A DNA stretch of 22,449 nt from Campylobacterota bacterium (GTDB taxonomy: Bacteria > Campylobacterota > Campylobacteria > Campylobacterales > Sulfurimonadaceae). The notes beneath the pieces are model-generated. The model was not told the DNA's origin and ran no database searches. It was given only the letters and a program-made list of their open reading frames with translations. Both the position numbers and the translations under genes were made by a program. Location: contig JAYEKO010000084.1 of assembly GCA_034661055.1 (NCBI GenBank), positions 6,670-29,118 of the forward strand, written 5' to 3'. Of the stretch, positions 1 to 22,301 are shown piece by piece. The number at the start of each line of letters is the position of its first letter. The stretch's first letter is position 1.

Positions 1-1837
1 CAACATCTCCAATAACTGAAGCAATCTTGCTGACAACATAAGCAAAATCAACACTTTGAGGTTTTCCTGCATTACTTAATGAGTCACTCTCTCTGTCACC
101 AGATACAATAAAGCCCATCTTAAGAGACTCTTGACGTTCTTCATCAAACACAGAACCCACTTCAAAAAGAGCAGAGCCTTTTCGTCCTGACTTAGCATTG
201 AGACTTGCTGACTCAAGAAGATTTAACATTAGAGTCGGTCGTAATGTGTCAAGTGTTGCAGCAATTGGATTAAGCAGGTCACGCTCTTTTGAAATACATG
301 TAAATCCAAAATTCTCTAACTTACTACGCTCATTAAATACAAAGTGGACGCTTTCAAAAAAGCCGTTATAGGCAGCTCTATTTCGATAGCTTTGACGCTT
401 TTTATAATGGGAATAATCATCATTATAACGATTCTTTTCTGCAAAAACAAACGGTTTTGAAGAGATATTCTCAATACCCACTAAACGGACAATCTCTTCT
501 ACAATATCTTGCTTATTGACTATATCGTGACGGTAGTGCGGCACTTCAATTACAAAGTCTTTTCCGCTAGATTTTTCAATATTAAAACCTAAACTTTTTA
601 AAATTTGAACAATCACAGATTTTTTAACAATATCACCAATAAAAGCATTAATCTCATCAACACTTACAGATATAATAGCCTTTTTCATACTCTGCCTGCA
701 CTCAAGTGTTCCACCGTAAAATGATGCCTTAGAAAAACTGTTGAAAAGCTCTACAGTCTGCTTCATACCAAACTCTAAATCACAATCTGTTCCACGTGAT
801 GTTCGATAATACAACTCATCACTCTTGCACTTATTTTCATGCATTTGACGTGAAATAGTATCTGGAGCAATATAGCTTGCTTCTAAGATTAATGTACCTG
901 AGTCAAATAAAAATTTTGAATCATCATTTTGACTGACGCCGACAACAGATGCATTCTCTTTGCCATTAACCGTTACATAACCATTGCTATCTCGATTTAC
1001 ATGTATTTCGGAATTATTAAAGAAGTCACTGCGGTATCCACGAATGACAACACCACTACAGTATGTTGAATAGAAAAGCAGACTCTCTAGTGCACTCTCT
1101 TTCTTTTGCTCTATTTGAGCTAAACGTAGCTCTAGAAGCAGTGGAAGTTTTAAATCTGAAAATTCTAGTGCACAATATTTTAGTTCAACATCAACATCAC
1201 TATGCACTAAACTAATAAGCTTACCAATACCTTTAACATGACCTTTAACATCTCTAGCAGGCTTCTCTCTAAAATCGACATCAAATGCAGCTGAAAGATC
1301 ACGACAGATGCCATTGATGCTTAAGCAGTCACCACGATTTGCAGTTAGTTCAATCTCAATTAAATCATCATTAAAATAGAGATTTTTTGAAAGCTCTTCT
1401 CCAAGATTAAGCGTACCAATACTCTCGTCCAGCTCCATAATACCGTCTTCAAGTTTTGGCAGACCTATTTCAGTTGAAGAACAGATCATCCCTTCACTGT
1501 CAACACCGCGAAGCTGTACCGGTTTAATTTCTAATCCACCAGGCATCTTAGCACCAATAGTTGCTACGGCTACATGGAGTCCTTCTCGTACATTAGCTGC
1601 ACCACAAACAATTTGACGTGTTGCCGCTCCAATATCTACTTGACATACATTTAACTTATCGGCATCTGGATGTTTTTCACACGCCAAAACCTTACCGACA
1701 ACAATTTTAGCAGGAACATCAAACCGCTCATGACGATCTACCTCTAAACCTATAGAGTTAAATGTTTTTGCTAAATTATCACTACTAATTCCATCAAGAT
1801 TAATCCACTCGTTTAACCAACTTTTTGTAACTATCAT
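1..1837 (-). CDS. pheT: Phenylalanine--tRNA ligase beta subunit (3' part runs off the window)
   Basis: Not in the ORF track because its stop lies outside the window. Manual translation from the ATG at 1837 gives [35 protein letters not shown]...[16 protein letters not shown]...QIVCGAANV...[19 protein letters not shown], which are PheT hallmarks. ATGA overlap with the pheS stop. Confidence 0.97.
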
Positions 1838-2826
1838 CTAAACTGCTCCAATAATCTTGCATCACCTTCAAAGAGTGATCGTAAATCACCAATACGGTGA
1901 ATCAGCATCGCAAAACGCTCAACACCTAAACCAAAAGCGTAACCACTAACATTTTTGTAACCAACCGCTTTAAAGACATTCTCATCAACAATACCACAGC
2001 CAAGAACTTCTAGCCAACCTGTTTTAGAACAGACTCTACACCCTTTTCCTTCACAAAAAATACAGCTAATATCGACCTCAGCAGATGGCTCGGTAAACGG
2101 GAAGAAGCTTGGACGAAAACGTACTTCTACTTCACCAAACATATAGTGCAAAAAGTCCTCTAGTATAAATTTCAAGTTAGCAAATGAGACTTCACCCTCT
2201 TTATCGACAAGCAGACCTTCAACTTGGTGAAACATCGGTGTATGTGTAAGATCATAATCTCTACGAAAAACAGCACCTGGTGCTATCATACGAATAGGAG
2301 GCTTTGTATGCATCATCGTTCGAATCTGAACTGGTGACGTGTGTGTGCGAAGCAGTGTCTCATCTTTAAAATAAAATGTATCTTGCATATCGCGTGCTGG
2401 ATGATACTTTGGCAAGTTTAGTGCTTCAAAGTTATGAAAATCATCTTCAATCATAGGACCGGTATGAATAGCAAAGTTCATTGATGCAAAGTACTCAACA
2501 ATTCTATCCATTGTCTCCATCACGGGATGCAGTGAACCACTCTGTGACGTAGTTGAATACAGCGTTACATCAAGAGCCTCAGCCTTCATAGCTGTTTCAA
2601 GTTCTTGAAGCTGTAGCACTATTTTTTTATCGGTAAGTAGTGCTGTCAACTTTCCTTTATGAATGTTAAGCTCTTTAGCAATTCCTGCTTTCTCTTCATT
2701 GGTAGCTGTTTTCATTTTGGCAAACTGAGCCGCCAAGACCCCTTTTTTACCAAAAAGTGCAATTCTTATCTCTTCAAGTTCACTGACACTCTGCACTGTG
2801 TCAATTTTATCGTACCACTCTTTCAA
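1834..2826 (-). CDS. pheS: Phenylalanine--tRNA ligase alpha subunit
   Basis: Motifs [39 protein letters not shown] and FAFG-like [15 protein letters not shown] start with an AGGTGG SD-like sequence upstream. Confidence 0.98.
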
Positions 2827-2948
2827 TTAGACCACCTATTTTAGGACTCCTGTCCTTTATATTACGCGTATTCTATTCAAATTCTATTTAAGAGGCTCTG
2901 AAGAGAGAAGTGAATACAATATTGTCATAATCAATTAAAGGTAAAAAA

Positions 2949-3305
2949 ATGTGTATTTTTTGTAAAATAGTAAATAAAGAGATTCCCTCAAACTCCGTCT
3001 TAGAAGATGATGATTTCCTTGCATTTCATGATTTAAACCCAAAAGCACCCGTACATATTTTAGTTATTCCTAAATTACATGTAGATAGTTTTAATGAAGT
3101 ATCCGCTGATATCATGGCCAAAATGACACTATTTATGCAAAAAGTGGCAACAGAAGTAGGCGTTGAGAAATCAGGTTATCGCATTATCACCAACATTGGT
3201 GATAATGGCGGTCAAGAAGTCAAGCATCTCCACTTCCACCTGCTTGGCGGAGCTAAACTTGCCTGGGGTCATTTTGCAGATGCTGACCCCAAAGATTTCT
3301 TCTAG
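2949..3305 (+). CDS. hinT: Histidine triad (HIT/HinT) nucleotide-binding protein
   Basis: N-terminal CIFCKI and the triad HLHFH (GQEVKHLHFHLLGG). It is divergent from pheS. Confidence 0.93.
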   Translation: MCIFCKIVNKEIPSNSVLEDDDFLAFHDLNPKAPVHILVIPKLHVDSFNEVSADIMAKMTLFMQKVATEVGVEKSGYRIITNIGDNGGQEVKHLHFHLLGGAKLAWGHFADADPKDFF

Positions 3306-3475
3306 ATAGAAGGAGGCTTAGGCGGACGAAGTGATTCGTCTGCCACAGTAGGCTGTGGTGTATTTGCGCGTGATGATGGAGTACTAGACTCCGTTACAGC
3401 ATCACTGCCTCCACCACCACATCCAACAAAAAATGCTGCTAGAACTAATAATATAATTGGTAAAAGTTTCATCAT
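3302..3475 (-). CDS. Small (57 aa) putative lipoprotein with a Gly/Ser/Pro-rich tail
   Basis: Manual translation: MMKLLPIILLVLAAFFVGCGGGGSDAVTESSTPSSRANTPQPTVADESLRPPKPPSI*. It has a lipobox FVG|C at Cys19 and a strong SD (AAGGAGG) overlapping the stop of the upstream beta-propeller gene. Absent from the ORF track. Confidence 0.8.
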   Translation of the reverse strand: MMKLLPIILLVLAAFFVGCGGGGSDAVTESSTPSSRANTPQPTVADESLRPPKPPSI

Positions 3476-3482
3476 ATCCTCC

Positions 3483-6071
3483 TTACTTTACTGTTTCACA
3501 GATAATATTTGAACCTTTTAACAAGGCACCATAAGTACTGCTACCGTAATCAAAAATAAGCCCTCTATCAGTGTTACCCCAATCAGACCCACTAGAAGTA
3601 ATGGTATGGAGCTTATTAATACTCATTCCATCGACTTCATAAATGCCAAAATTCTCACTCTGATTTTTATATTCACTGTAATTATATGTACGATACGGTA
3701 CACCAAACATCAGGTCACTTCCTCTGTATGCAAATGCCTTATGATTATGTTCAGCCTCACTGTATGTATATTTATCACCAATTTGCATCTTATCTGCTAA
3801 ACGAGGAGCAGCAAAATTAGTAATATCAAACAGTTGAAACTGTAACTCTTGTTGACGGCCCTCTGCATCGGCATTACGTCCAATACTCAATACTCGATTT
3901 TCATCAATTACATGTAAATATGTTGAGAAGCCTGGAATCTCCAGCTCACCCACCGCTTTTGGATTTTCCGGATCACTCATATCAAGAGTATATAGCGGAT
4001 CTGTCTGCTCAAACGTCACCACAAAACCGCGATCTCCCATAAAACGCACCGCACGAATAGTCTCATTTTCATGTCCAAGTCCCTCAAGTGTTCCTTTGAC
4101 CTCTAAGACCTCATCACTATTTTTTAGTGTATAGACAGAATTGGTGGTACCACCACTGCCCCACCATGACCAACCTGAAGTAGTAGCCACTCTTAAGTAG
4201 TCATCTTTTTCACTCATACTAAACTGGTTAAGCATTCTGCCCTCAACAAAACCACGACCTTCATAAGCCATTGTCTCTCCTAGAGAAAACTTGTAGATCA
4301 TCTGCTGCTCTTTATAGCGCTCGTAATCATAGTAACGTGGATATTCACTTGAGACTAAATATAGTGATGTCGTCGATGCATAATTGGTGTGTGTATTTCC
4401 CAAAAATGAAATAGTCTCACTGCGAGCACCACTATCTACACTAAAACTACTAATAGAGGTAATATTAGCACTCTGATCAAGCTTAAGTGGGGCATAAAAT
4501 TTTGAAGGAGCTACCAAGTCAGATACAGTTCCATCACTTGTAATCGTTGGTGTTAAATCCTCACTAATAACTATTGGATTATCATAATCGTACTTCCATG
4601 CACCATTGGCATCGTAGTTGTATTGATAACAGTTATTATCTTTCCATGCCTGGTAGTTTGAACTATACTCGCACGACTCTTCATATTCTTCTATCTCTGG
4701 TTTAGGGCAATCTTCTTCAGGAAGACATGCCGGTACAAGTTGATCTTCAATAGAACCAGAACAATATCCATATATTTCATTTTGATCTAAGTCGGTACAG
4801 ACTGTAGCAAGATAGAGTTTTGGATACTCATACTCAACTCTAGGATAAAACTGACTAATTAAAAAGAGTCTTCCATCAATTAAACGGCTATCTTGATAAC
4901 TTCCATCAATCTCATGAGATGCGATTATGGTAATACTATTAATATTGGAGACATCAAAAACATCTAATGTAAAAAGAGGCTCACTGTAGTAATATGGCAT
5001 TGAACGCACTGACTCTTCATCATTAACTATACCTGTATCTTCTTCCATCGGTTTCACTGGATAATCGTAGTTATATGATTTATTTGAAATAACACTCAGG
5101 CGGTTATTTTGTAAAAACATCGCAATCACATTTTTCTCACTCATTGCTATTTCAGCAATAGGAGTATAGTTTTGCTGTGCTATATTTGAAAATGATGTTA
5201 CTATGATTTTATTATTTCTATTGTCAACATTAAAAATATGAGTACCATCATGCTTCATAATGTCACTTTCATCAACACCCTCTTCTTGCAAGTTAGTTGA
5301 AGTGGCATCTTTAGCACTCTCTTCATTGCTGGCTTCATCTCCACTAGACACCTCAGCAGCAGTAGGAACAGCAGCATCTAAAGCCGCTTCTGGTACTGCC
5401 ATAGGTTCAATAATTCCGCCACCATAATAGTAATAATTATTCATAGTGATCATCTTACGGATATACTCCAACATTGAAGCTTTATCATTAAATGTCTGCA
5501 GTTTTGAGAGCCTACTGTCAACGTCAATAGTTTGTGCAGTCTCACTCTTTACCCACAGCCCTTCACTAGAAGTAATCGCTTCAATTGGTGGAAAACTTAA
5601 ACTCTCATCGTTAACTTTCCACTCCTGATCACTACTATATTTCCAAACTACCGCATCGCCAAAAAATTCATCTGAAACGACACTATTTTGAGGAATTTCA
5701 ACTAAATTCCAGCCCTCATAGAGCTTTATTTCACTGTTTTTAGCACTACTAAGAAGAGCTGACTCTTTAAAGTCTAAAGACCACTGCTCCTTACTAAAGA
5801 CCCAAACAGCCTGCCAAGGCTGTAGTGAGTCCAGAGTAGCAAAGCCTTTTTCGGTAATAATTCCCTGTAATTCAGCATCAGGAGCATACCCATTCCAACT
5901 CTGAGTTACTCCATCATACCCCCAGACAATCTCTACACTCTTAGTATTAAACACAGACATGTCATTAAGAGTTGATGGAACTCCAATAAGTTGCCACCCT
6001 TTTTTTAAATTAACTGTTGTATTAGCGTGCATAACACTAAGGACAAAAAGAAGTACAACAAAAATACGCAT
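3483..6071 (-). CDS. Secreted protein with a C-terminal beta-propeller domain (COG4880 / Beta_propel-like) and N-terminal GWxL repeats
   Basis: Signal peptide MRIFVVLLFVLSVMHA. Family-like motifs TNLQEEGVDESDIMKHDG, GRMLNQFSMSE..YLRVATT, ETIRAVRFMGDRGFVVTFEQTDPLYTLD and GELEIPGFSTYLH. I prefer the ATG at 6071 over the GTG at 6080 because of SD spacing. Confidence 0.85.
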   Translation of the reverse strand: MRIFVVLLFVLSVMHANTTVNLKKGWQLIGVPSTLNDMSVFNTKSVEIVWGYDGVTQSWNGYAPDAELQGIITEKGFATLDSLQPWQAVWVFSKEQWSLDFKESALLSSAKNSEIKLYEGWNLVEIPQNSVVSDEFFGDAVVWKYSSDQEWKVNDESLSFPPIEAITSSEGLWVKSETAQTIDVDSRLSKLQTFNDKASMLEYIRKMITMNNYYYYGGGIIEPMAVPEAALDAAVPTAAEVSSGDEASNEESAKDATSTNLQEEGVDESDIMKHDGTHIFNVDNRNNKIIVTSFSNIAQQNYTPIAEIAMSEKNVIAMFLQNNRLSVISNKSYNYDYPVKPMEEDTGIVNDEESVRSMPYYYSEPLFTLDVFDVSNINSITIIASHEIDGSYQDSRLIDGRLFLISQFYPRVEYEYPKLYLATVCTDLDQNEIYGYCSGSIEDQLVPACLPEEDCPKPEIEEYEESCEYSSNYQAWKDNNCYQYNYDANGAWKYDYDNPIVISEDLTPTITSDGTVSDLVAPSKFYAPLKLDQSANITSISSFSVDSGARSETISFLGNTHTNYASTTSLYLVSSEYPRYYDYERYKEQQMIYKFSLGETMAYEGRGFVEGRMLNQFSMSEKDDYLRVATTSGWSWWGSGGTTNSVYTLKNSDEVLEVKGTLEGLGHENETIRAVRFMGDRGFVVTFEQTDPLYTLDMSDPENPKAVGELEIPGFSTYLHVIDENRVLSIGRNADAEGRQQELQFQLFDITNFAAPRLADKMQIGDKYTYSEAEHNHKAFAYRGSDLMFGVPYRTYNYSEYKNQSENFGIYEVDGMSINKLHTITSSGSDWGNTDRGLIFDYGSSTYGALLKGSNIICETVK

Positions 6072-8002: not shown

Positions 8003-8703
8003 TGAAACGGTTACGTTTAACACTAACACTTTTTCTACTCATTGGTGCTATGCTTTATGCGTATGTATCCAAGAGCAATAGTCATACATCAACAGATGTC
8101 TCAACCAATAACCTCTTAGCGATTAGCTGGCAAAATGCCTTCTGTGAGACCCACCAAAAAAAGCGAGAGTGTCGTAATATTAAAGCGACCGACTTTTCAG
8201 CATCGCACTTTACACTTCATGGGCTCTGGCCACAACCAAGAGATAATACCTACTGTAAAAAGAGTAAAAAGGTCTGGCTAGAAAAACCGCTATACACAGA
8301 GCTTTTACATGTAATGCCCGCAGCAAAAAGTGGGCTACATCAGCATGAGTGGAAGAAACATGGAACCTGCTACAATAGCTCTCAAGAGCAGTATTTTAAA
8401 GACTCAATCTTACTGTTAAAACAGATTAACAACTCTGCTGTTCGTGATTTTTTTGCAAAAAACATTGGTAAGACAGTCACTGCAAAACAGGTTCGTTTAG
8501 CATTTGACAGAGCTTTTGGACAGGGAAGCGGTCGAAAAGTTAAAATGCAGTGCCATAAAGGACTCATTACCGAATTACATGTAAATCTTCAAGGTAATAT
8601 TAGCGCGCTTTCTGACATTGACAGGCTTTTAAAAGATGCCAAATATGCACAAAATGGTTGCCAAAAAGGTCGTATTGATGGTGTTGGCTTTAGCAGATAC
8701 TAA
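8002..8703 (+). CDS. Ribonuclease T2 family protein (secreted or periplasmic)
   Basis: CAS I (FTLHGLWPQ) and CAS II (HQHEWKKHGTC) motifs, an N-terminal hydrophobic signal and several Cys. TAATG overlap with the ligase stop. Confidence 0.93.
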   Translation: MKRLRLTLTLFLLIGAMLYAYVSKSNSHTSTDVSTNNLLAISWQNAFCETHQKKRECRNIKATDFSASHFTLHGLWPQPRDNTYCKKSKKVWLEKPLYTELLHVMPAAKSGLHQHEWKKHGTCYNSSQEQYFKDSILLLKQINNSAVRDFFAKNIGKTVTAKQVRLAFDRAFGQGSGRKVKMQCHKGLITELHVNLQGNISALSDIDRLLKDAKYAQNGCQKGRIDGVGFSRY

Positions 8704-9979: not shown

Positions 9980-11287
9980 TTATTTACCAGACTTTTTCTT
10001 GTCATCAAACCTGCTTGCAGCTGGTCCGTCACGTTTCGTACGCTTCTTTTTAGTTGCAGGCCCTTTTCGCTGTCGTCGTCCAAAGGCACCCTTAGTACTT
10101 TTTTCTTTAGGAATCTGTTTAACTTCAGAACTTCCTACACTCTTTTCATGAACCATGCGCTCATACCCTTTTACATGTAATTGGGGAATCCTAAATTTAA
10201 TTAGACGCTCTACCGCTTTTAAGTAGTAATCTTCACGGGAACTCACTAGTGAAATTGCCTCACCTTCTCGTCCTGCTCGACCTGTTCTTCCTACACGGTG
10301 AACATAGTCTTCATTGACACTTGGCATCTCATAGTTTATGACATAATCAAGTTCATCAATATCTAGCCCACGAGCAGCAATATCCGTGCCTACAAGCACT
10401 CTAATTTTACCCTCACGAAAAGCATCAAGTGTACGTTTTCGTGCGCCCGCTTTATGCTCACCATGAATAGCTAGAGAACTTAAACCGGTCTCATTTAGAT
10501 ATGCGGCAACATCATCGGCACTTTTTTTGGTTTTAGCAAACACTAAAACTTTGTGCCAGTTTTTAGCACCAATTAAAAACGAAAGAAGCTCACTCTTTCT
10601 CTCGTCATCGACCAAACAGACGGAGTGCTTTACTGTTTTTGGAATCTCCCCTGCTCTATTAACCTCAAAGGTAAGTGGCTTACGCAGAACTTTTTCAGAG
10701 AGCATCTTTACCTTGCCCATTAGCGTTGCACTAAAAAGCAGTGTTTGACGAGTTGCAGGGAGTAGGTCAACAATTTTGTAAACATCGTTGTGAAAGCCCG
10801 TGTCAAACATACTGTCGGCTTCATCAATAACAAAGTGTTCAATCTGTGAAAGATTAATCTGTTTGAGTTTTATAATATCTAAGAGTCGTCCTGGTGTTGC
10901 AACAACAATGTCAGTGCCCTCATTTAAACGGTTAATCTGTGGTTCAATCTTAGCACCACCATAGATTAAATTATGATTTACATGTAAATTTGATGCAAAC
11001 TCATCTAAGCTTCTTCCCACTTGAATAATAAGTTCGCGTGTGGGTGTAATAATTAAAATACGGGGGTGTCGAAACCCTTCTTGGGCAGGCTGTTTTGTAA
11101 GCAGTTGAAGTAACGGCAACAGATAACTTGCTGTTTTACCACTACCCGTCTGTGCGGTTGCAAAGATATCACGTCCGCGCAGTAGTGCAGGAATAACCTC
11201 TTTTTGTACCGGCGTAGGTTCTTTGTAACCACTCTTTTGTACCGCTTTTAAGACCTCTTGATTTAAGCCTAATGTGTGAAATAACAT
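9980..11287 (-). CDS. DEAD-box ATP-dependent RNA helicase (RhlE-like)
   Basis: Q motif (GYKEPTPVQ), AQTGSGKT, PTREL, TPGRLLD, DEAD, SAT, ARGLD, HRVGRTGR and a Lys/Arg-rich C-terminal tail. Confidence 0.95.
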   Translation of the reverse strand: MLFHTLGLNQEVLKAVQKSGYKEPTPVQKEVIPALLRGRDIFATAQTGSGKTASYLLPLLQLLTKQPAQEGFRHPRILIITPTRELIIQVGRSLDEFASNLHVNHNLIYGGAKIEPQINRLNEGTDIVVATPGRLLDIIKLKQINLSQIEHFVIDEADSMFDTGFHNDVYKIVDLLPATRQTLLFSATLMGKVKMLSEKVLRKPLTFEVNRAGEIPKTVKHSVCLVDDERKSELLSFLIGAKNWHKVLVFAKTKKSADDVAAYLNETGLSSLAIHGEHKAGARKRTLDAFREGKIRVLVGTDIAARGLDIDELDYVINYEMPSVNEDYVHRVGRTGRAGREGEAISLVSSREDYYLKAVERLIKFRIPQLHVKGYERMVHEKSVGSSEVKQIPKEKSTKGAFGRRQRKGPATKKKRTKRDGPAASRFDDKKKSGK

Positions 11288-12474: not shown

Positions 12475-12512
12475 AAAACTCCTTCAACAGCTAATTTACA
12501 TGTAATTATATA

Positions 12513-14753
12513 CTAAAAAGCGTGTCCTAAATAGAAATACAGAGAATCTCGTCCGCCTTTTGAGAGTCCATATGCAAAATAGAACGGGCCTAAAATGGTA
12601 TCTGAAGCAAGATAGATATTTGCGGCACTAATCATACTAGGAGTATTCTGCTCATCATGAAACCATACATTCCCCATCTCAACCATACCACCAACATACA
12701 GTGGCGCAGAGAGTGCCCCAAAAAAATTATTATTTGAGATTTGATACCTGTAATTCAGGACACCTAAAAGTCGTGTATCTCCAGAGAGTGCATTATTGGC
12801 GTAACCAGATAGTTTTGCAAATCCACCTAAAGTAAGTAGTGATGTAAAATCCGACTCTCCATTGTAGGTTGTAGCATACTCTAGTTTAGGCAAAAAGGTG
12901 TGTTTACCAAAACTGTACGCAGCATTAAAAGATGTGTCAATCTGTTCAAAATCAAGATCACCACCAAGAGAGTCAAACTCTTTACTCCATTTTACATAAG
13001 AGTAATACCCATACTTTGGAAAAAACGCGTTGTCATAAGAGTCATAAACCATTTTAAAATTCAGAGATCGTGAATCATCTTTATTTTTAAATCTGACATA
13101 TTCTACTTGCATAGTTTCAGCATCTATTGCCAAAGTGTCATAAATAGATTCATTTTTTTTCGCAGCAATAGTAGCTTCTACTTGAAAACTATTGGTAAGA
13201 TTAGCTCCAAATGCCAAAGCAGCACCACTCTCTTTAACTTCAATGTCTAACACGTCCTCATCAGAACCTTCGACTCCTACTGCTGTTGCACTAGTATATA
13301 CATTTCGGTCCCTATAGAAGAAATAAGGTTTAAAGTAATACTTTTGCATCATGTCAATGGGTTGATACCACTCCGTGTAAATTAGCTCTTCACTTCCTAT
13401 ACTAAAGCGATTTCGCCACTCTGCACCATAACTATTTAATCCATACAGTGTTGCTTCAAAACGTAAATCAAAATCATTTTCACCTTTGAAGTTATCTTCA
13501 AAGCTAATGCCTGCTTTAATAATTCCATTTTGATTCCAACTTGGATCTGCATTTACATGTAAAATAGAGTTGCCATCTTTTGACTCAATATCATAAAGTA
13601 TTTCACTAAAAATTTCAGTATTAAAAAGCCTGTCTATTCCGCTTTCTACTCTTGTAACATTAAAATCATCACCATTTTTCACATCTAATTTTTTCATAAT
13701 AAACTTATTGGAGATATAGGTTGAATTATTAATATTTATGGCATCAATAGTGCCATAGTCAAAAGATGGTTGGTATCGTGAACTTTTTTTGTAGCGCTTA
13801 TACTCACTCTCACTAACACTAAGGTGCGATAAATTACTGTGATAGATACTCTCCACACTCTGCTCACCAATGGCAATAATCTCTGGATATTTATTTGAGT
13901 CTAGTGGCGTATAGCCTTTGAGGTCTGGAGTAATGAGTATTTCGTTATCTCTCATAGATGCAATATCTTTTTCAACATTTTTACGCATTAAAATATCTGA
14001 AAGCTGAGAGATTACTGTCAGGTACGATTCTGAGTCTATATCTTTAGCAAAAGGCGTACTAATATCTACCGCAACAATAATATCTGCGCCCATATCTCTC
14101 ATCGCTTCAAGAGGTAAGTTTGCAGCAATTCCTCCATCTACTAAGACTTTACCGTCTATTTCAATAGGTTCAAAACCACCTGGAATAGCAATTGAAGCGT
14201 AAATTGATTTAGAGAAATCTCCACTCTCAAGCACTACCATTTCACCATTTTGCAAGTTACTAGCAACTGCTACATAAGGAATAGGAAAATCCGAGAAATT
14301 TTTAATGTTATTTACATGTAAAGTCTCTCTTTTTAAAAGTTTTAACATCTGCTGTGCACTAAACAGACCTGCTTGAAAGGTAGGTTCATCCTCACTGTTT
14401 AAGCCAATGCGCAGTCTTCCTGGAAAGTCTCTATCAAACTGTTTACGTTGAAACGGTATCTTGGCACGCTCATAAGAGACCGATATGTAATCTTCCCATG
14501 ACGTTTCAGTAAGCAGTTTCTCAATCTCATCAGATGTCTTTCCAGAAGCATATAGTCCACCCACAAGTGACCCCATACTCGTCCCTGCAATCATATCTAT
14601 GGGAATATAATATTTCTCAAACATCTTTATGACACCTAGGTGCGCTCCACCACGAGCACCACCACCGCTAAGTACCAGACCAATTTTAGGACGCGTTGTC
14701 TCTGCATAAGTCATGCTTACCAATAGTAAAAATAGGACTAATAGTTTCATCAT
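12513..14753 (-). CDS. Patatin-like phospholipase with POTRA and an Omp85-like beta-barrel (PlpD / type Vd-like)
   Basis: Signal peptide, then patatin motifs GGGARG, GTSMG and DGG. POTRA-like segment near TIDAINI...LFNTEIFSEI, an amphipathic beta-strand C-terminus and a terminal Phe (YFYLGHAF). Confidence 0.88.
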   Translation of the reverse strand: MMKLLVLFLLLVSMTYAETTRPKIGLVLSGGGARGGAHLGVIKMFEKYYIPIDMIAGTSMGSLVGGLYASGKTSDEIEKLLTETSWEDYISVSYERAKIPFQRKQFDRDFPGRLRIGLNSEDEPTFQAGLFSAQQMLKLLKRETLHVNNIKNFSDFPIPYVAVASNLQNGEMVVLESGDFSKSIYASIAIPGGFEPIEIDGKVLVDGGIAANLPLEAMRDMGADIIVAVDISTPFAKDIDSESYLTVISQLSDILMRKNVEKDIASMRDNEILITPDLKGYTPLDSNKYPEIIAIGEQSVESIYHSNLSHLSVSESEYKRYKKSSRYQPSFDYGTIDAININNSTYISNKFIMKKLDVKNGDDFNVTRVESGIDRLFNTEIFSEILYDIESKDGNSILHVNADPSWNQNGIIKAGISFEDNFKGENDFDLRFEATLYGLNSYGAEWRNRFSIGSEELIYTEWYQPIDMMQKYYFKPYFFYRDRNVYTSATAVGVEGSDEDVLDIEVKESGAALAFGANLTNSFQVEATIAAKKNESIYDTLAIDAETMQVEYVRFKNKDDSRSLNFKMVYDSYDNAFFPKYGYYSYVKWSKEFDSLGGDLDFEQIDTSFNAAYSFGKHTFLPKLEYATTYNGESDFTSLLTLGGFAKLSGYANNALSGDTRLLGVLNYRYQISNNNFFGALSAPLYVGGMVEMGNVWFHDEQNTPSMISAANIYLASDTILGPFYFAYGLSKGGRDSLYFYLGHAF

Positions 14754-16582
14754 AAAGTCTCCTTTTTAAGTCTTAATACCGCATCTCTCACCTCTTGCGA
14801 ACTGCTTTGAAGTGAGATACCTTGAGCAAAAGTAATGGTTATCTCTCTTCTAAATAGTAGATGCTTGAGTATATTTTTTGTTTTAGAGCGACTAAAGAGT
14901 GATCCATACATATTGCCTATATAAAATGGGACAATAGTACCATTATAGTTTTTTGCAACCTGTTCAAAACCTCTGTAAAATTTTCCAATCTCTCCATCAT
15001 AACTTATACGACCTTCAGGAAAAAGAGCTACCATCTCACGCGAAGCAATACACTCACTAGCACGCTTAAAAGCCTCTTTAGCACCACGCGCTGATATAGG
15101 AATAGCATTACCCAGTTTAAAAAAAGGCTTTAAAAATTTTGCCTCATAAATATCTCGATCCATCACATAGTTTATGCGACGACGAAGTGGCAGTTGTACC
15201 AATAACCAGTCAATCCATGAGATATGATTTCCTAAAAGCAGTACCGCACTCTCATCGGAGACATTTTCAACGCCAACATAACGAATCTTATAGCGCAAGG
15301 AGAGCAGTAGCTCCAGAACTAACCATATTAGCATAACGAGATAACTTCTTATGAGATAGACACAAAGTACTAAACCAATACTCCCCATAATAAGAAACAG
15401 CGAAAAAGAGTTCAAACCGTAATAAGCAAAAAGCGTAGTCAGCAGTAGTGCCGTAAACATAAAAATATTTTGAATGAAGTTATTACCCGCAAGAATAGTA
15501 CCTAGATGAACTCGTGGTGAGCGCTGCTGTATGTAGGCATTTAAGGGAACAATAAAGAGTCCTGCAAAGATCCCAAACGTAAAAAAAGCGGTCGCTATAG
15601 CCGTTAAGCTGGTTAAAAAAGGCAACATTAATGTAATAATTGAAAACCCTAAAGCCCCTAAGGGTGCCGCTCCAAGATGAATAAAGTACTTTGAGATCTT
15701 AGCACTTAAAAAAGAGCCGACAATAATACCAATACCCGCTAGTGCCATCATCCCTTGGACCATAATAGCGTTATCTACATGTAATTGTGTTTTGGCATAT
15801 GCTCCAAAAATGGCTAAAACCACCTGAGATATTGACCAAAAAAGACTCAGCGCAACAATGGCAATAACAATCTTACGTTTACGCATAATGACTCTAAGGT
15901 TCTTTCTCAGATAGTAGCCGTTTTTATATTTCTTAAAATTAAATCGTTTTTTAGAGGGAGCTATCTGTCTATTTGGAAGTCTCAATGTTAGGTAATACTC
16001 AAAAAGTGAGCTAATAACAAGCAGCCAACCAATAGGTGCAATCTGTTGTAAAATGTCTGATGCTGTAGCAAATTCATCTGTTAAAGCATTCTCAAAAAGA
16101 ACCGTATAAAAAAGTATTCCTCCAAGTATGGCTACGGTTGTTACCGCCTGAACCACTGCGTTACCCATGGTAATACGACTCTCTCCTACAAGCTCTTTAA
16201 TGTACCCATACTTTGCAGGTGAGAAGATAGCACTCTGAGTAGAGAGCAAAAATGTAAAGAAAAAAGCTAAATAAAAGAGTCCCAAATAGTAGGACAAAGT
16301 AATGCCTAGAGTAATCACTACAGCAGCTAGTGATGAGTACTTCATAATAGTATGTTTAGGATATTTATCGGAGAGAAATCCAGATGGTGAGAAGAGCATA
16401 ATAAAAGGTAGTAGTACTAATGCGCTTAAAAATGCTGTTAGTATTATCTGTAGGCGTTCATCATATAGCTTAAAGACACTATTTTGAATAATAATCTTAT
16501 GTCCCAAGTCAGTAAAAGCGTTAATAAATAAAACGGCTATATAGGGAATGAAGCCTTCAATACTATTTAGCCGTTTACTCAT
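14750..16582 (-). CDS. MFS lysophospholipid transporter (LplT-like) fused to a glycerolipid acyltransferase; Aas-like but without the acyl-ACP synthetase domain
   Basis: About 12 hydrophobic segments with GFLSDKYPK and QSAIFSPAKYGYIKEL, then acyltransferase motifs NHISWID and LFPEGRIS. The ATG at 16582 overlaps the upstream stop (ATGA), so I prefer it to 16600. Confidence 0.87.
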   Translation of the reverse strand: MSKRLNSIEGFIPYIAVLFINAFTDLGHKIIIQNSVFKLYDERLQIILTAFLSALVLLPFIMLFSPSGFLSDKYPKHTIMKYSSLAAVVITLGITLSYYLGLFYLAFFFTFLLSTQSAIFSPAKYGYIKELVGESRITMGNAVVQAVTTVAILGGILFYTVLFENALTDEFATASDILQQIAPIGWLLVISSLFEYYLTLRLPNRQIAPSKKRFNFKKYKNGYYLRKNLRVIMRKRKIVIAIVALSLFWSISQVVLAIFGAYAKTQLHVDNAIMVQGMMALAGIGIIVGSFLSAKISKYFIHLGAAPLGALGFSIITLMLPFLTSLTAIATAFFTFGIFAGLFIVPLNAYIQQRSPRVHLGTILAGNNFIQNIFMFTALLLTTLFAYYGLNSFSLFLIMGSIGLVLCVYLIRSYLVMLIWLVLELLLSLRYKIRYVGVENVSDESAVLLLGNHISWIDWLLVQLPLRRRINYVMDRDIYEAKFLKPFFKLGNAIPISARGAKEAFKRASECIASREMVALFPEGRISYDGEIGKFYRGFEQVAKNYNGTIVPFYIGNMYGSLFSRSKTKNILKHLLFRREITITFAQGISLQSSSQEVRDAVLRLKKETL

Positions 16583-17292
16583 GCCAAAGTAGTACTCCAA
16601 CCTTCATATAGACCATGTTCATCCATTGCCAACTGCATTAGCTCTTTTGTTATTGTGTCAACTACTTCTGGAGTTACACTGTGTACTTGAGTCAATACAA
16701 TTGCGTGACGAAGTTCACTCTCATCATCAACAAGTTCTTCTTTACATGTAAATTCTAAACTCTGTGCTTTAGAGATGGCACGCTGGGCATTACTTTTTGT
16801 TGGAAAAAAGAGGTAGTGTTCTACCTCTCTGATGGCTTCGTGATTATCTCCAGCAGCATGAAGAGATGAAATAATGTCACTGTTTCTAATCTGCAGAAAT
16901 TGCATCTCATCTGGATAGAGTTCATCAAAGTAGAGTTTATACTTTGTATCTTTATAAGAACCTACTTCATAACTATATTTTGAGCCTACTACAGATGCGG
17001 TGATGTTCTCAAATTTTTTAGCACTGTAGGCATAAAAGTAGATCTCAAACCAGCCATCAACGACTCTGTAGCCTGCTAATGTCGCTTCTAATTTCTCTTT
17101 TAAGGAACTATTTAACTCCTCTAAGAGTTCTAGTAGCAATGTTAGCTCATCAGCACTGCCCTCTCTAATTTTAAGAAAAATCCATAAGACATTTTGGGCA
17201 AAAGTCTCATAAGACTCTTTTTCAAACTCTAGGTTGACACCGACTTCTATTGACTCATTGTCATCATTTACGTTCTGGTATCGTGTTAGCAT
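16579..17292 (-). CDS. DUF695-domain protein with a C-terminal RraB-like domain
   Basis: Acidic 237-aa protein. N-terminal AGYRVVDGWFEIYFYA (DUF695-like) and C-terminal GD....REVEHYLFF...HGLYEGWST (RraB-like). Family recognised from memory. Confidence 0.7.
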   Translation of the reverse strand: MLTRYQNVNDDNESIEVGVNLEFEKESYETFAQNVLWIFLKIREGSADELTLLLELLEELNSSLKEKLEATLAGYRVVDGWFEIYFYAYSAKKFENITASVVGSKYSYEVGSYKDTKYKLYFDELYPDEMQFLQIRNSDIISSLHAAGDNHEAIREVEHYLFFPTKSNAQRAISKAQSLEFTCKEELVDDESELRHAIVLTQVHSVTPEVVDTITKELMQLAMDEHGLYEGWSTTLA

Positions 17293-17802: not shown

Positions 17803-17811
17803 CTATCACAA

Positions 17812-18207
17812 ATGAATGATATTTACACACTTACCCTAATTTATCTTATTTTAGAACTCTTTGAGACACAGTGGCAAAAAGCTGACACCCTTATTGGCAT
17901 GCTTGAAAATATGTATGAAAAGTTTCAAAGTAATATTTTACAGTTTCTAATTCTTCATCCAACATTTTACTTTACCATATACTTAGCCATGATTACCGAT
18001 TACTCTGCGCAAATATTATTAGTACTTTTTATTAAGACCTTTGATATTGCAACAAAAATTATTTTAATGGTACAAGTATTTCAAAAAGAAGAGATACCTC
18101 AGGAGCTTTCACAGATGCTATTGGCACCACTTCATAAGCTGATGCCCTACATTGGAGTGGGACTTTACGTCCCGTTAATATTTATGGGCTTGATTAACAC
18201 TTATTGA
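17812..18207 (+). CDS. Hypothetical membrane protein
   Basis: 131-aa ORF with 3-4 hydrophobic segments, preceded by an extended -10 box. Its end overlaps the hisG 3' end convergently. Confidence 0.75.
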   Translation: MNDIYTLTLIYLILELFETQWQKADTLIGMLENMYEKFQSNILQFLILHPTFYFTIYLAMITDYSAQILLVLFIKTFDIATKIILMVQVFQKEEIPQELSQMLLAPLHKLMPYIGVGLYVPLIFMGLINTY

Positions 18208-18811: not shown

Positions 18812-19422
18812 ATATCTATCCTGCTACTTATTATTTTCATCCCTTTAAAAATCAGCATCTCATCGACCTTGGCATCTTTAAAAATCTTTTTAAGTTCCAA
18901 AGCACTACCACCCGTTAAAATAATGGGTTTATTATGGCGCATCACTTCACCATAAAGTAGTCTTAAAAATCCATAACTGATTGAATCTTGGGAATTTTTC
19001 GGCATTTTATCTAAATTGAGCTCAAAATTAAAGGTATAGTCGAGTCTTGATGAGATATTTCTATAACTCTCTGCCATTGCATCGACACCAGGGTAGATAA
19101 ATCCACCCTCATAAAAGCCACTATTTATTATGTCTACAGTGATTGCACTTCCAGCATCAATAACAATAGCATCATTCACCGCTTCACAAGCCATAATTCT
19201 ATCAATACCCATCGTCTCATAATAGTGTGTATAATCCACATACGCTTTTAAATCAACCCAATTAGAGGCCTTTTGTAAATCTACATGTAAATTTGGATTG
19301 ACATTAATGTAATAAACTTTCTCTTTACATGTAAATATATCAAATTTTTCTACATCTTTTTTGTAACTGTTTTGACCATCATAAAAATGTAGTGAGGTGT
19401 TTCCAATATCACACAGTAGCAT
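18805..19422 (-). CDS. coaX: Type III pantothenate kinase
   Basis: LLCDIGNT, MGIDR, VIDAGSAITVD, GGFIYPG and ILTGG motifs. Confidence 0.95.
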   Translation of the reverse strand: MLLCDIGNTSLHFYDGQNSYKKDVEKFDIFTCKEKVYYINVNPNLHVDLQKASNWVDLKAYVDYTHYYETMGIDRIMACEAVNDAIVIDAGSAITVDIINSGFYEGGFIYPGVDAMAESYRNISSRLDYTFNFELNLDKMPKNSQDSISYGFLRLLYGEVMRHNKPIILTGGSALELKKIFKDAKVDEMLIFKGMKIISSRIDIC

Positions 19423-19714
19423 CAGTCATCACAGTAAAGTTTCTCTCCTGTAAAGCTTTGAGTGCTTTAGAGCAGATTGGGGCTTTTAGTATCAGTACTT
19501 TTTTACTAAACTTGTAGCCGACAAAATTAGAAAGCTTTGTCATTATAGCTTCAAACTTTGGTACATCTTTAATGAGTATTCTACTCTTTTGGTTAATACC
19601 AAGCAGTGCAACTTGAGAGTTTGAACTGTCAATACCGTAATGAATAGTGATCTTATTGCGAATACCAAGCTCTTTGGGTGAAATCTCTTGTATCTGTTTA
19701 AAATTATGTTTCAT
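19409..19714 (-). CDS. Small basic hypothetical protein (about 101 aa)
   Basis: SD AAGGAG (19724-19729) sits 9 nt before the ATG at 19714 (MKHNFKQIQEI...), which is a better start than 19771. It overlaps the coaX start. Confidence 0.75.
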   Translation of the reverse strand: MKHNFKQIQEISPKELGIRNKITIHYGIDSSNSQVALLGINQKSRILIKDVPKFEAIMTKLSNFVGYKFSKKVLILKAPICSKALKALQERNFTVMTDATV

Positions 19715-19740
19715 CTTATATAGCTCCTTAAATAGTAATG

Positions 19741-20568
19741 TCATAAAGACTCCTGAGATAGTGGATGACACGCATTAACTGTCTCTCTAAGATGTGACTG
19801 CTGTAGATGCGTATAGATCTGTGTAGTTAGCAGTGATGAGTGTCCTAAAAGTTCTTGTACTACTCTTAAATCTGCACCACCTGTAATGAGCGCTGTTGCA
19901 TAAGAGTGACGCAGTACATGAGGAGATACATTAAGATACTTTTGTGTGATTTTATAGGCTGAAATACGACTCAGTTTATTGCCCCTACTGTTTAACCATA
20001 GTGTAGGTTTATCATAAGGAGATGCCTCGAGATAGTTCTCGACTGCTTTTAAAGCTTCTGAAGCAACAGGAACATAGCGCTCTTTCTCCCCTTTTCCATG
20101 ACGAATACGAAGCCATGTATCTTCAAAATCTTCTCTTTGTACACTTAAACACTCACTAATCCGTGAGCCTGTGGCATATAAGAAGATAATAAGGGCATAA
20201 TCCCTTAAGTCAGTCCACTTTTTAAGCTCAATGGCTTTTAAACCACTCATAACATCACTATAAGAGAGGTACTTCGGAAGCACTGCAGGAAGTTTTGAGA
20301 GTTTAAACTTTGAAAACGAATCTACAAAGCGCTGTTTATGACAGAAGGTAAAAAAAGCGTTAATAGTAGATAGTTTTCTATTGATGGTCCTACGATTTTC
20401 TACTACCGATAACACTTTTAATACATCGTCACTTTTAAGCTCAATGAGTGATTTTGAAGTAGTGTTTTCAATTGCCACTAAATCACTCTCATAAGCAGCT
20501 ATGCTATTTTTAGAGAGAGACTTAGAGATAGTTATATACTCTATAAACGCCTCCAGCTCATTAGACAT
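19741..20568 (-). CDS. xerD: Tyrosine recombinase, XerD/XerC-like
   Basis: Catalytic R-K-H-R-H-Y set: YATGSRISE, GKGEKER, SPHVLRHSYAT, QELLGHSSL and TTQIYTH. It sits in a housekeeping operon with no phage or IS genes. XerC versus XerD is not resolved from sequence alone. Confidence 0.8.
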   Translation of the reverse strand: MSNELEAFIEYITISKSLSKNSIAAYESDLVAIENTTSKSLIELKSDDVLKVLSVVENRRTINRKLSTINAFFTFCHKQRFVDSFSKFKLSKLPAVLPKYLSYSDVMSGLKAIELKKWTDLRDYALIIFLYATGSRISECLSVQREDFEDTWLRIRHGKGEKERYVPVASEALKAVENYLEASPYDKPTLWLNSRGNKLSRISAYKITQKYLNVSPHVLRHSYATALITGGADLRVVQELLGHSSLLTTQIYTHLQQSHLRETVNACHPLSQESL

Positions 20569-20574
20569 TAACGG

Positions 20575-21576
20575 CTATTTTACCTTAAAGAAAATATCAT
20601 TGACAAAAAATGTCTTATTAGCAGTAAAAACATAGCCGTCTTCAATGTCAACATCGTACACTTTAAATGCTAAAAGTTCTTTATCTAGGCTAATTAGATA
20701 GCCCTCTTTCTCTAGAGCATAGACTCTATTATCAGTAACAATCAGACCTAAAAAATGAGCAAATTGAAATTTCTTTGCCGCAATTTTTTGAAGTGATGGA
20801 GTGAATGATACAATTTCACCCTGTTTAGTACAGATGTAAATAACATCATCTTTAAAGACCATATCGCGCAGCTCATAAGACTCTCTTACCTCTTTAGCAC
20901 CTAAAGAGAAGATATTGTATGGAGTAGCAGCAATGAGGGTATTTCCGATGACATTAAAGTGGGTAATGTTGTTAAAATATGACTCTGAAGATACAATCAT
21001 AGAGCGTATCACTTTTTTAGCCTCAGTATTAACAATTACAATCTTTCCATCAAGTGTCAAAAAAAGCACCAAATCTTGCATGAAATATGGGTTTTGTACT
21101 CTAGAATCTACAGCAATTGGAGCTGTTCCCTGCTCTTTAAAAAGTAGCTCTTTTGACGCAAGTGAATAGATAGCCATCTCGTTATTTGCAAATAAAACAG
21201 CTAAAATATCATCTTTAACTGAAGCCGCAGCAACTGTTTTTTTCAATTCAAATTCAATACCTGCCTTGGGAGCTTCCATTGCTTTTAATGAGACATTACC
21301 ATCACTCGTACTTGAGACCACCCATCCATCACTAAAAGATAAGAATCGGTGTTGTGGCGTTAATGAGGCTTTAATCAGTGCTTTTGTTGTCATAATCTCA
21401 CCGCTGTCTAAAACAGCTCCATCAGATGTAACATCAATAATTTTTCCACTTAGTGTACCACTGGAATCCCAGTCACCAACTGTACTCTCTGGAACATAAT
21501 ACTCTTTAGAACCACAACCAGTTAAAAGCGTTATGAATAAAAAAAGTACGGCTAAAAAATAGTTGTGGCGAGGCAC
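20575..21576 (-). CDS. Lipoprotein with a probable beta-propeller fold (PQQ-like/BamB-like; resembles the H. pylori PgbB family)
   Basis: Lipobox LTG|C and repeating beta-rich units (LVLFLTLDGKIVIVN, VIYICTKQGEIVSF, RVYALEKEGYLISLD). Confidence 0.7.
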   Translation of the reverse strand: MPRHNYFLAVLFLFITLLTGCGSKEYYVPESTVGDWDSSGTLSGKIIDVTSDGAVLDSGEIMTTKALIKASLTPQHRFLSFSDGWVVSSTSDGNVSLKAMEAPKAGIEFELKKTVAAASVKDDILAVLFANNEMAIYSLASKELLFKEQGTAPIAVDSRVQNPYFMQDLVLFLTLDGKIVIVNTEAKKVIRSMIVSSESYFNNITHFNVIGNTLIAATPYNIFSLGAKEVRESYELRDMVFKDDVIYICTKQGEIVSFTPSLQKIAAKKFQFAHFLGLIVTDNRVYALEKEGYLISLDKELLAFKVYDVDIEDGYVFTANKTFFVNDIFFKVK

Positions 21577-22169
21577 TACTTAACTCCGTAGTGCATCAAT
21601 GACTTTGCCACTTTATAGAGTGGTGAGTCCTCAGAGATCAGAGATAATTTTTGTTGAGCTTTTTGATTCTGGTCACTCTTCATTAGAAGAAGCGAGTTTT
21701 CAAGTATTGCTAAATCTTTATAGATTGCATTTTGTTTTGATGTATAGCTAGCTAGAGCCTTTTCATCAGCATTAATAACTGCCAACTCATATGTTGCTAA
21801 ATCACTAATAACATCATCATCACTTACACTAAGAGCTTGCAGTGACTCTACATCACCTGAGGTGACAGCATTAGAGAACTTCAAAGCATTAAAGAGGCTT
21901 GGATTGAGTGCAGCCAACTCTTTTTCTGCTGCACTGTCAGGACCTTTTAACAGTGTTGCATAAGCTGCATTAGAGTCTTGTGCTGCTGCTTCAACATTTG
22001 CATCATTAATTGCACTAATAGCAACAACGGCTACCACTGCAATGACTCCACCAATAATAACTGTTTTATACTTTTTCCAAACACGTTCTGCCTTAACGGC
22101 ATTTTCAAAAAATTTCTCTTCCGAATTTAATTCATCTTTTACCATATCTATATTTTCTTTAAGACTCAA
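21576..22169 (-). CDS. Single-TM protein with a helical/TPR-like periplasmic domain (YfgM-like)
   Basis: TTG at 22169 with SD AGGAG 5 nt upstream (MSLKENIDMVK...). WKKYK followed by a hydrophobic TM, then Ala/Leu-rich helices. Confidence 0.7.
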   Translation of the reverse strand: MSLKENIDMVKDELNSEEKFFENAVKAERVWKKYKTVIIGGVIAVVAVVAISAINDANVEAAAQDSNAAYATLLKGPDSAAEKELAALNPSLFNALKFSNAVTSGDVESLQALSVSDDDVISDLATYELAVINADEKALASYTSKQNAIYKDLAILENSLLLMKSDQNQKAQQKLSLISEDSPLYKVAKSLMHYGVK

Positions 22170-22301
22170 AAAAGCTCCTGCATACATTATTTTGCGTAGC
22201 ATAATATCTAATTAACTATTAATTTTATGTAAACATCACCTAAAGTATAAGTTTTTTCTGTTACAATCGCTATTAAAATTACATGTAAATACGGAGTAAC
22301 T

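Follow-up and report, generated by a model that had tools for sequence, protein, structure and literature searches.

A hyper-abundant AT-rich palindromic octamer in Sulfurimonadaceae genomes, possibly a lineage-specific tag of self DNA

The octamer TACATGTA, an exact palindrome centred on CATG, occurs 899 times in the genome of a Campylobacterota bacterium of the family Sulfurimonadaceae, against 65.8 copies expected at zero order (13.7-fold). It came to attention in a stretch of 22,449 nucleotides of that genome, here called the window (GenBank assembly GCA_034661055.1, contig JAYEKO010000084.1; C84:6670-29118 in our contig numbering), where a sequence-only reading had proposed it as a genome-wide signal. 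The assembly, referred to as G000, is a metagenome-assembled genome (MAG) of 1.908 Mb in 92 contigs, with 36.2% G+C and 83% completeness. The excess reaches well beyond the window: all of the 40 largest contigs carry the word, at 0.23-0.89 per kb, and among 8-mers with at least 100 copies it has the highest ratio of observed to zero-order expected counts. The density first proposed, about 1 per 1.4 kb, is correct within the window and gives way to 1 per 2.1 kb genome-wide. The same excess is found in 38 of 201 genomes of the family, and we tentatively interpret the word as a tag of self DNA.

A crude call of open reading frames (ORFs) on G000 gave 1757 ORFs covering 92% of the genome, with 758 copies of TACATGTA inside ORFs and 141 outside. 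All three reading frames are used (516/195/47) and the copies are evenly distributed along gene length. The density is 0.43 per kb in ORFs compared to 0.83-1.15 per kb in intergenic DNA, with all types of intergenic region alike. A codon-aware null model, which the sequence-only reading had named as the explanation to be faced, cannot account for these numbers: 756 ORF copies stood against 128 +/- 11 after synonymous codons were shuffled within genes and 34 +/- 6 after codons were permuted within genes (20 shuffles each). A second permutation run (8 permutations) gave a mean of 31.9 copies, an excess of 24-fold. The proteome is visibly distorted as well. The tripeptide LHV occurs 421 times in G000 ORFs versus 80 expected (5.3-fold), and the tetrapeptides LHVN and LHVK occur 142 and 94 times versus 4.0 (35-fold) and 5.9, respectively. 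YTACATGTA spells 399 of the 421 LHV tripeptides, and TTA, CAT and GTA make up merely 29%, 69% and 30% of their own codon families. The excess operates at the level of DNA rather than of protein and overrides both codon and protein constraints.

Information around the octamer reaches three bases on either side, forming the 14-bp palindrome A-T-T-TACATGTA-A-A-T (ATTTACATGTAAAT). The 12-mer TTTACATGTAAA represents 27% of the octamers in G000, and 82% of the 1103 ACATGT hexamers in the genome lie within the octamer. No halo of near-matches surrounds the word in G000, where the twelve classes with one mismatch stand at 0.36-1.12 times the codon-permutation expectation; on the same scale, variants at the outer positions are at 0.41-0.50 times and ACATGT outside the octamer is at 0.5 times. 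ACATGT is also scarce in G006, a family genome picked solely as a TACATGTA-negative control, with 244 copies in 2.0 Mb versus about 660 by a zero-order estimate (about 2.7-fold depletion), so part of the depletion in G000 is background. Spacing between copies is near random (coefficient of variation 0.95 versus 1.00 +/- 0.03 in 300 simulations), except that pairs at distances of 11-17 bp are too frequent (15 versus an estimated 3 or so). Close pairs lie, for example, at C45:6579, C61:46872 and C76:14870, all outside the window; the recurrent pair spacings are 12 and 17 bp, and 15 of the 29 pairs less than 50 bp apart are intergenic. This excess of close pairs could reflect cooperative protein binding. 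With information spanning 14 bp only and 84% of copies within ORFs, the word does not have the features of structured repeats of the repetitive extragenic palindrome, miniature inverted-repeat transposable element or NTS types, which measure at least 20-30 bp, form stem-loops and are for the most part extragenic. Purine-rich 8-mers (CAAAAGAG, CTCTTTTG and their kin) also exceed zero-order expectation, by 7-14-fold, in G000 and in G167, an enriched genome of another genus; this excess probably arises from codon or strand composition.

Within the window, the 16 exact copies that the sequence-only reading had listed were all found at the same starts, and dinucleotide-preserving shuffles averaged 0.65 copies, with no more than 3 in any of 100. 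Our recount also agreed that 16 of the 17 ACATGT hexamers belong to the motif, the lone exception lying at 5957, and that the copies extend in three ways: 11 to TTACATGTAA, three to TTACATGTAG or its complement (3076, 15776 and 19282) and two to TTACATGTAT or its complement (295 and 998). No strand is assigned to the individual copies. As had been claimed, the hosts are unrelated: 14 copies lie in ten ORFs on both strands and two are intergenic, and the ORF copies use two frames, 11 as xTA-CAT-GTA (L/I-H-V) and three as ACA-TGT (T-C). The pheT gene carries copies at 295..302 (frame F-T-C, context AAATACATGTAAAT) and 998..1005 (I-H-V, context ATTTACATGTATTT). The L-H-V frame is used at 3076..3083 in a HIT-family gene, 3909..3916 in a beta-propeller gene, 8306..8313 and 8576..8583 in an RNase T2 gene, and 10172..10179 and 10979..10986 in a DEAD-box helicase gene, the last of these being a complete 14-mer ATTTACATGTAAAT. 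After an intergenic copy at 12497..12504, in the gap between the saccharopine dehydrogenase and patatin/Omp85 genes, L-H-V recurs at 13554..13561 and 14313..14320 in the patatin/Omp85 gene and at 15776..15783 in an MFS/acyltransferase gene. The RraB/DUF695 gene has a copy in frame F-T-C at 16743..16750, and the type III pantothenate kinase gene has two copies 44 bp apart, at 19282..19289 (L-H-V) and 19326..19333 (F-T-C). The last copy, 22280..22287, is intergenic at the downstream end of the window.

In order to follow the sites through evolution, gene conservation in G000 was measured as identity to the motif-free G006. The density of TACATGTA is 0.19 per kb in ORFs of at least 75% identity, 0.46 at 60-75% and 0.68 at 45-60%, and is 0.41 per kb in ORFs without a G006 homologue. 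Coding sites of G000 were then mapped onto aligned orthologues. In G006, the word was present at 2 of 553 mapped sites, and the residues standing at L-H-V positions were LHV (16), LHI, VHV, LQV, LNV and the like, following the pattern [LVI][HQNKD][VI]. Given this variety in G006, the word has been forced onto residues where a hydrophobic-polar-hydrophobic series is tolerated. In G167, the exact word was present at 27 of 256 mapped sites (10.5%), where about 0.06 would be expected by chance; nine further sites were one base off and most differed by 3-5 bases. Sites of TACATGTA persist between these two genera. Findlay and Redfield (2009, PMC2817400) describe uptake sequences as scarce in conserved genes, located at variable residues and inflating their tripeptides about 2-fold. 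By its rarity in conserved genes, its preference for variable residues and its near-random spacing, TACATGTA therefore resembles the uptake sequences as that paper presents them.

The distribution of the word was surveyed in 201 genomes of the family. Genomes were called enriched when they held at least 99 copies of TACATGTA and at least 3 times the count of the control palindrome ATGTACAT, the reversed word, which occurs 0-76 times per genome (33 times in G000). The 38 enriched genomes hold 99-1780 copies. All genomes of five genera are enriched: the window's genus (6 of 6, 421-1014 copies), g3 (4 of 4, 1051-1392), g5 (5 of 5, 1155-1780), g19 (1 of 1, 1299) and g37 (12 of 12, 99-1154). The large genus g2, to which both G167 and G006 belong, is enriched in 10 of 54 genomes with graded counts of 850, 694, 611, 527, 413, 291, 232, 172, 171 and 101, and 17 other genera show no enriched genome among 119 (3-58 copies). 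Outside the family, the octamer was counted 6-22 times in five genomes, each from a different family of the order, and the 12-mer 0-1 times in 16 genomes that each represent another family. The enriched set includes the single-contig complete genomes G041, G084, G167 and G201. Along 0.8 Mb of one G167 replichore (0-800 kb) the copies are evenly spread, at 4-19 per 50 kb. The flanks are specific to the lineage, with TTTACATGTAAA representing only 1-8% of octamers in several other genomes and the outer positions looser in G167 (for example, CACATGTA at 65 and TACATGTT at 53 copies in 0.8 Mb); therefore, the word has dialects. In a FastTree phylogeny of PheS+PheT from 75 named public loci plus the window, with motif status taken from counts in about 7 kb per genome, the 18 motif-rich rows fell into at least three groups, requiring a minimum of 5 changes.

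The negative control, G006, harbors a hyper-abundant word of its own. The non-palindromic 8-mer TGCGTGAG and its complement CTCACGCA occur 482 and 469 times, respectively, in 2.0 Mb, which is about 30-fold over zero-order expectation and, at 1 per 2.1 kb, equal in density to TACATGTA in G000. Its logo is [C/T]TGCGTGAG[not T]. Most copies (921 of 951, 97%) lie in ORFs, on both strands and in all frames that do not create a stop codon, and inverted pairs showed no excess in G006. The orientation by GC-skew half is 270:217 in the positive half versus 212:252 in the other, so that the leading-strand bias, about 55:45, is small but real (522 versus 429). The word is absent from a 70.9-kb stretch of G006 (1,118,133-1,189,065) with 30.4% G+C compared to the genome average of 38.6%, and is also missing in other stretches of atypical composition. 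Only three of the 201 family genomes are rich in it, G006, G058 and G068 (962, 630 and 759 copies), all of them TACATGTA-negative members of g2; the remaining 198 genomes hold at most 77 copies per strand. Two unrelated, mutually exclusive and equally dense words within one genus argue for a general word-accumulating process whose specificity depends on the lineage. Being non-palindromic, unskewed, gene-embedded and dense, TGCGTGAG looks like a classical uptake sequence by analogy. A de novo search for recurrent 8-mers within 127 short loci yielded mainly words that reflect codon usage.

A motif-based screen of the G000 ORFs, in a genome 83% complete, identified two DNA methyltransferases, an MmeI-like enzyme of 900 amino acids (aa) and a D12-class enzyme of 326 aa. 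The D12 N6-adenine methyltransferase (PF02086, E 3e-48) stands alone between xseA and sppA (S49 peptidase), and its relatives at about 54% identity bear the source name 'Modification methylase NlaIII'. From these family names, the enzyme is predicted to target CATG, the centre of TACATGTA, with ACATGT or a still longer site also conceivable; a PDB sequence search with it returned 0 matches. Strong homologues, defined by E below 1e-80, were found in 29 of 38 enriched genomes versus 13 of 163 others. Thus, the profile of CATG methyltransferases that the sequence-only reading had recommended reveals an association of an orphan NlaIII-family enzyme with enrichment. In a tree of 35 D12 sequences, deep, long-branched clades that track genera were drawn exclusively from enriched genomes, and all 13 non-enriched carriers fell within one shallow 'crown' clade mixing six genera, which to judge from the tree may spread as a mobile gene would. 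Gene order is ubiE-xseA-methyltransferase in the window's genus, Rrf2-methyltransferase-recO in two enriched genera (G007, G047, G009 and G059), with the methyltransferase directly downstream of recO, and dxr-methyltransferase-tsaD in g2 and g37, a site occupied in many genomes. Both xseA and recO, the neighbours in the first two of these arrangements, are repair or recombination genes.

Some D12 loci have further components. A helix-turn-helix controller and a nuclease-like ORF adjoin the gene in G044, G019, G163, G155 and G207, which hold 27, 11, 57, 172 (weakly enriched) and 62 copies of TACATGTA, respectively; the nuclease-like ORF is of IceA/NlaIII type in G044, G155 and G207. Of the four non-enriched genomes among them, G044 and G019 belong to the 13 strong carriers, and G163 and G207 are additional carriers. 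These five loci look like true restriction-modification systems from their predicted gene content. An IceA/NlaIII-type nuclease was considered as an explanation for the non-enriched carriers, which it covers only in part, with a match in 6 of 42 carriers. In G167 (contig 1, 132,509-136,222), an AccI-type endonuclease, an Eco57I-type methyltransferase and an NlaIII-family methyltransferase lie inserted together between dxr and tsaD, apparently an insertion hotspot for genes of restriction-modification systems. The MmeI-like type IIL restriction-modification enzyme of G000 (900 aa, C24:18366-21068, minus strand) has a 56%-identical homologue in G167 and none in G006.

Competence genes were then examined. 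All 5 genomes tested, enriched and non-enriched, had ComEC, DprA, a ComEA-like HHH_3 protein and a secretin, and type IV pilins occurred in 183 of the 201 family genomes; this gene content suggests a general capacity for DNA uptake in the family. In G006, the sequence matching ComEC (contig 1, 254710-255462) contains one in-frame TGA, possibly marking a pseudogene, a sequencing error or recoding. A candidate reader of the motif was sought by differential gene content, with the 1757 G000 ORFs compared by tblastn to G006 (2.0 of 2.03 Mb, 98.6%) and G167 (0.8 of 2.2 Mb, 36%). This comparison left 445 ORFs absent from G006, 32 of which were present in the sampled 36% of G167, among them the D12 methyltransferase, the MmeI-like enzyme, a LigE-like periplasmic ligase and pilins. 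The LigE-like ATP-dependent DNA ligase (266 aa with a signal peptide and a KxDG motif, C58:38561-39361, plus strand) is of a type linked to competent proteobacteria, and was set aside as a reader with its presence in 70 of 201 genomes of enriched and non-enriched genera alike. Three pilins were also rejected. Full-length homologues of pilin C20 occur in many non-enriched genomes. The minor pilin C52_5096, which is FimT-like, was promising on 5 genomes but proved to be present in 51 of 201 family-wide: one non-enriched genus has it in 8 of 17 genomes and another in 23 of 54, and an enriched one in only 1 of 12. The enriched G067 lacks the pilin-like C61_2952, which is encoded within a type II secretion cluster of the Gsp type. 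This cluster (C61:94-10401, minus strand) is absent from G006 and adjoins a gene for a 458-aa lipoprotein composed almost wholly of acidic Pro/Glu/Asp/Ala repeats. Candidates for paralogue replacement, ORFs far closer to G167 than to G006, were housekeeping genes as judged by eye from the sequences, with no family search.

To our knowledge, three bacterial groups have short words in such excess, namely highly iterated palindrome 1 (HIP1) in cyanobacteria, DNA uptake sequences (DUS) in Neisseriaceae and uptake signal sequences (USS) in Pasteurellaceae, and the origin of such words is still debated. Within the same phylum as our host, Campylobacter jejuni uses CtsM-methylated RAATTY as a transformation self-mark, a short site that is not known to be driven to excess. 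The two cases would share an orphan N6-adenine methyltransferase and a short palindromic word as proposed mark of self DNA; unlike RAATTY, TACATGTA extends over 8-14 bp and is 24-fold enriched, and the enzyme families differ. Chi sites of RecBCD or AddAB resemble TACATGTA in being over-represented, lineage-specific octamers of native DNA, but Chi is asymmetric, strand-skewed and far less enriched, whereas TACATGTA is its own reverse complement.

The closest parallels are with HIP1 and with DUS and USS. HIP1 (GCGATCGC) and alternate HIPs are described by Elhai (2015, PMC4390886), Xu et al. (2018, PMC5861425) and Rodriguez-Cruz et al. (2026, PMC13756078), and recent work proposes HIP1 as a methylation-dependent uptake or transformation signal. 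Like HIP1, TACATGTA is an exact palindromic octamer, hyper-abundant in and between genes across a clade, with an orphan methyltransferase predicted to act on an internal sub-site and with exceptional lineages that carry another word. It differs in its Campylobacterota host, in its AT-rich, CATG-centred sequence, in a predicted N6-methyladenine (m6A) enzyme of the NlaIII family in place of GATC or CGATCG enzymes, in a looser link to the methyltransferase (29 of 38 versus 13 of 163), in random spacing where HIP1 is described as quasi-periodic, and in an alternate word that is non-palindromic. By analogy it is at most an 'alternate HIP', as both word and host differ from HIP1 proper. With DUS and USS, as characterised in PMC2817400 and PMC1939737, it shares a density of about 1 per 1-2 kb, use of all frames, intergenic enrichment, inflated tripeptides, avoidance of conserved genes and residues, lack of orientation bias and variation between lineages. 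Unlike them, it is palindromic, has no halo of single mismatches in G000, forms no inverted-pair terminators, has no ComP-like receptor among the three pilins tested and inflates its tripeptide 5.3-fold compared to about 2-fold (PMC2817400). The NTS/SRM repeats cut by Ssn GIY-YIG nucleases (PMC11893778) also contain palindromes in hundreds of copies, and NTS is tied there to natural transformation; however, NTS is described as about 30 bp long, an oriented hairpin with an N8 loop that flanks genes, especially ssnA, whereas TACATGTA is loop-free and mostly intragenic. An Ssn/NTS identity was rejected on motif anatomy, no GIY-YIG search having been made. The class that remains for TACATGTA is the HIP/DUS type, in which some drive saturates native DNA with a short word. 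In the literature searched, which took in neither most subscription journals nor REBASE, no description of TACATGTA was found, nor of another iterated word or uptake sequence from Sulfurimonas or Campylobacterota, in agreement with the earlier suggestion that the motif is undescribed.

The sequence-only reading had left open whether the word is maintained by a methylation/repair, DNA-uptake or nucleoid-binding system. A signal at the level of DNA and an association with a CATG-family enzyme stand, and the choice of mechanism is not settled by the data. We tentatively favour, as a real possibility still short of a probable one, a tag of self DNA that is specific to the lineage, spread by biased transformation or recombination and probably carrying a methyl mark. 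Under such a mechanism, a molecular drive would have raised the word to about 1 copy per 2 kb, with enough force to alter proteins. The drive would consist of preferential uptake and/or recombination of motif-bearing DNA of the same species during natural transformation, in the manner of DUS and USS, and the central CATG would be marked by the resident orphan NlaIII-family N6-adenine methyltransferase, with the mark mattering to how the word is read. This reading is favoured because the sites behave like uptake sequences and because of the anatomy of TGCGTGAG, the competence genes, the proposals made for HIP1 and the C. jejuni mark; the similarity to uptake sequences and the occurrence of TGCGTGAG in sister species favour uptake or recombination. 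A further-reaching version is conceivable but doubtful, in which uptake or self-recognition sequences arose a third time, independently, in Sulfurimonadaceae, with words that can replace one another between lineages (TACATGTA in five genera and part of a sixth, TGCGTGAG in three species of that sixth), a re-targetable specificity factor and the m6A form being read in the case of TACATGTA.

Several observations weigh against a methyl-marked transformation tag. The D12 methyltransferase is neither necessary nor sufficient for enrichment: it is lacking from the enriched complete genomes G084 (611 copies), G201 (694) and G151 (171) and from the 99%-complete enriched G067 (914), and orphan D12 genes occupy the dxr-tsaD locus in the non-enriched G195, G213, G203, G165 and G024. 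In the enriched G083, only a D12 remnant with two in-frame stops is kept (contig 70, 34707-34880), which suggests recent loss. A CATG enzyme alone cannot specify the flanking TA...TA. Competence genes occur equally in enriched and non-enriched genomes, and thus permit uptake and lend it no specific support. Besides the D12 and MmeI-like enzymes, no sequence-specific DNA protein was present in the 32-ORF set, for which 36% of G167 was sampled, and no receptor or reader was found, with the three pilins and the LigE-like ligase failing to track the motif. Finally, the known DUS and USS are non-palindromic and have a halo of near-matches (a gradual over-representation is reported by Bakkali 2007, PMC1939737), whereas G000 has no halo and G167 has one at the outer positions.

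An alternative that we consider unlikely is methylation-directed biased repair or gene conversion of the HIP type, which would convert near-matches to perfect copies with no role for uptake; Elhai (2015, PMC4390886) proposes such a mechanism for HIP1. It would account for a palindromic octamer centred on the family target of an orphan methyltransferase that is associated with enrichment (29 of 38 versus 13 of 163), vertically inherited in enriched lineages and adjacent to xseA or recO. However, four enriched genomes that are 99-100% complete lack the enzyme, 13 non-enriched genomes carry it, and a CATG enzyme alone would leave TA...TA unset. A sink towards the perfect motif predicts depletion of near-matches, as seen at 0.41-0.50 times for the outer variants and 0.5 times for ACATGT, but the approximately 2.7-fold depletion of ACATGT in the motif-free G006 makes this signal partly background. 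In addition, the non-palindromic TGCGTGAG fits a type II orphan methyltransferase poorly, and m6A carries no deamination bias.

A Chi-like signal for recombination or nuclease attenuation, read by enzymes of the AddAB/RecBCD type with TACATGTA or TGCGTGAG according to lineage, is improbable. Chi sites are over-represented 8-mers of the core genome that vary between lineages without gene gain or loss, and such a signal would explain the absence of any presence/absence determinant; the leading-strand bias of TGCGTGAG in G006 (522 versus 429) and the lack of both words in islands of atypical composition also agree with it. In E. coli, Chi is found 1008 times versus 151 expected (Bakkali 2007, PMC1939737), and the 24-30-fold enrichment and proteome distortion observed here lie far above this level of about 6-fold. 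Chi function is defined by polarity, which a palindrome cannot have, and the bias of TGCGTGAG is just 55:45. Polar signals in general, Chi and the FtsK-orienting polar sequences (KOPS), are disfavoured because TACATGTA is palindromic and TGCGTGAG barely skewed.

Equally improbable is that the word binds an abundant dimeric nucleoid-associated or chromosome-organising protein, following the logic of Noc, SlmA or ParB on a genome-wide scale. The 14-bp AT-flanked palindrome would suit a dimer, the intergenic density is doubled, and the close pairs (15 at 11-17 bp versus about 3; 15 of 29 pairs under 50 bp intergenic) are consistent with binding. On the other hand, known regional nucleoid-protein sites (NBS, SBS, matS, parS) number tens per genome and are confined to a chromosome region or excluded from one; a regional site is disfavoured because TACATGTA has roughly 900 copies and its spread along 0.8 Mb of G167 is even (4-19 per 50 kb), with spacing near random. 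Proteins resembling transcription factors tolerate mismatches, yet variants with one mismatch are not enriched; no candidate protein was found, and the word of the sister lineage is non-palindromic. That the word has no function, as a by-product of codon or dipeptide usage, composition, restriction avoidance or assembly artefact, is scarcely conceivable: although LHV and TC peptides could in principle create it and MAGs can hold artefacts, the 756 ORF copies versus 34 +/- 6 and 128 +/- 11, the denser intergenic DNA, the mere 33 copies of ATGTACAT and the recurrence in 38 genomes, complete single-contig ones included, exclude codon usage, composition and artefact.

These results add a free-living, environmentally dominant clade of sulfur oxidisers to the bacteria with hyper-abundant words, in this case a strict AT-rich palindrome that has visibly rewritten the proteome. 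In practice, TACATGTA could improve genetic transformation of Sulfurimonas, as HIP1 has been used to improve it in Synechococcus (10.1101/2024.09.10.611283), and could flag foreign islands and aid the binning of MAGs. Several of the informative genomes are complete single contigs, which suggests that cultures for direct tests may exist. The asymmetric word of sister species, together with a gradient from background to 850 copies within one genus, with and without the methyltransferase, provides a natural experiment that could separate the methylation, uptake and repair models. If the self-DNA tag proposed here is real, the graded genomes of that genus, from about 20 to 850 copies, would show such a drive being gained, switched and lost.

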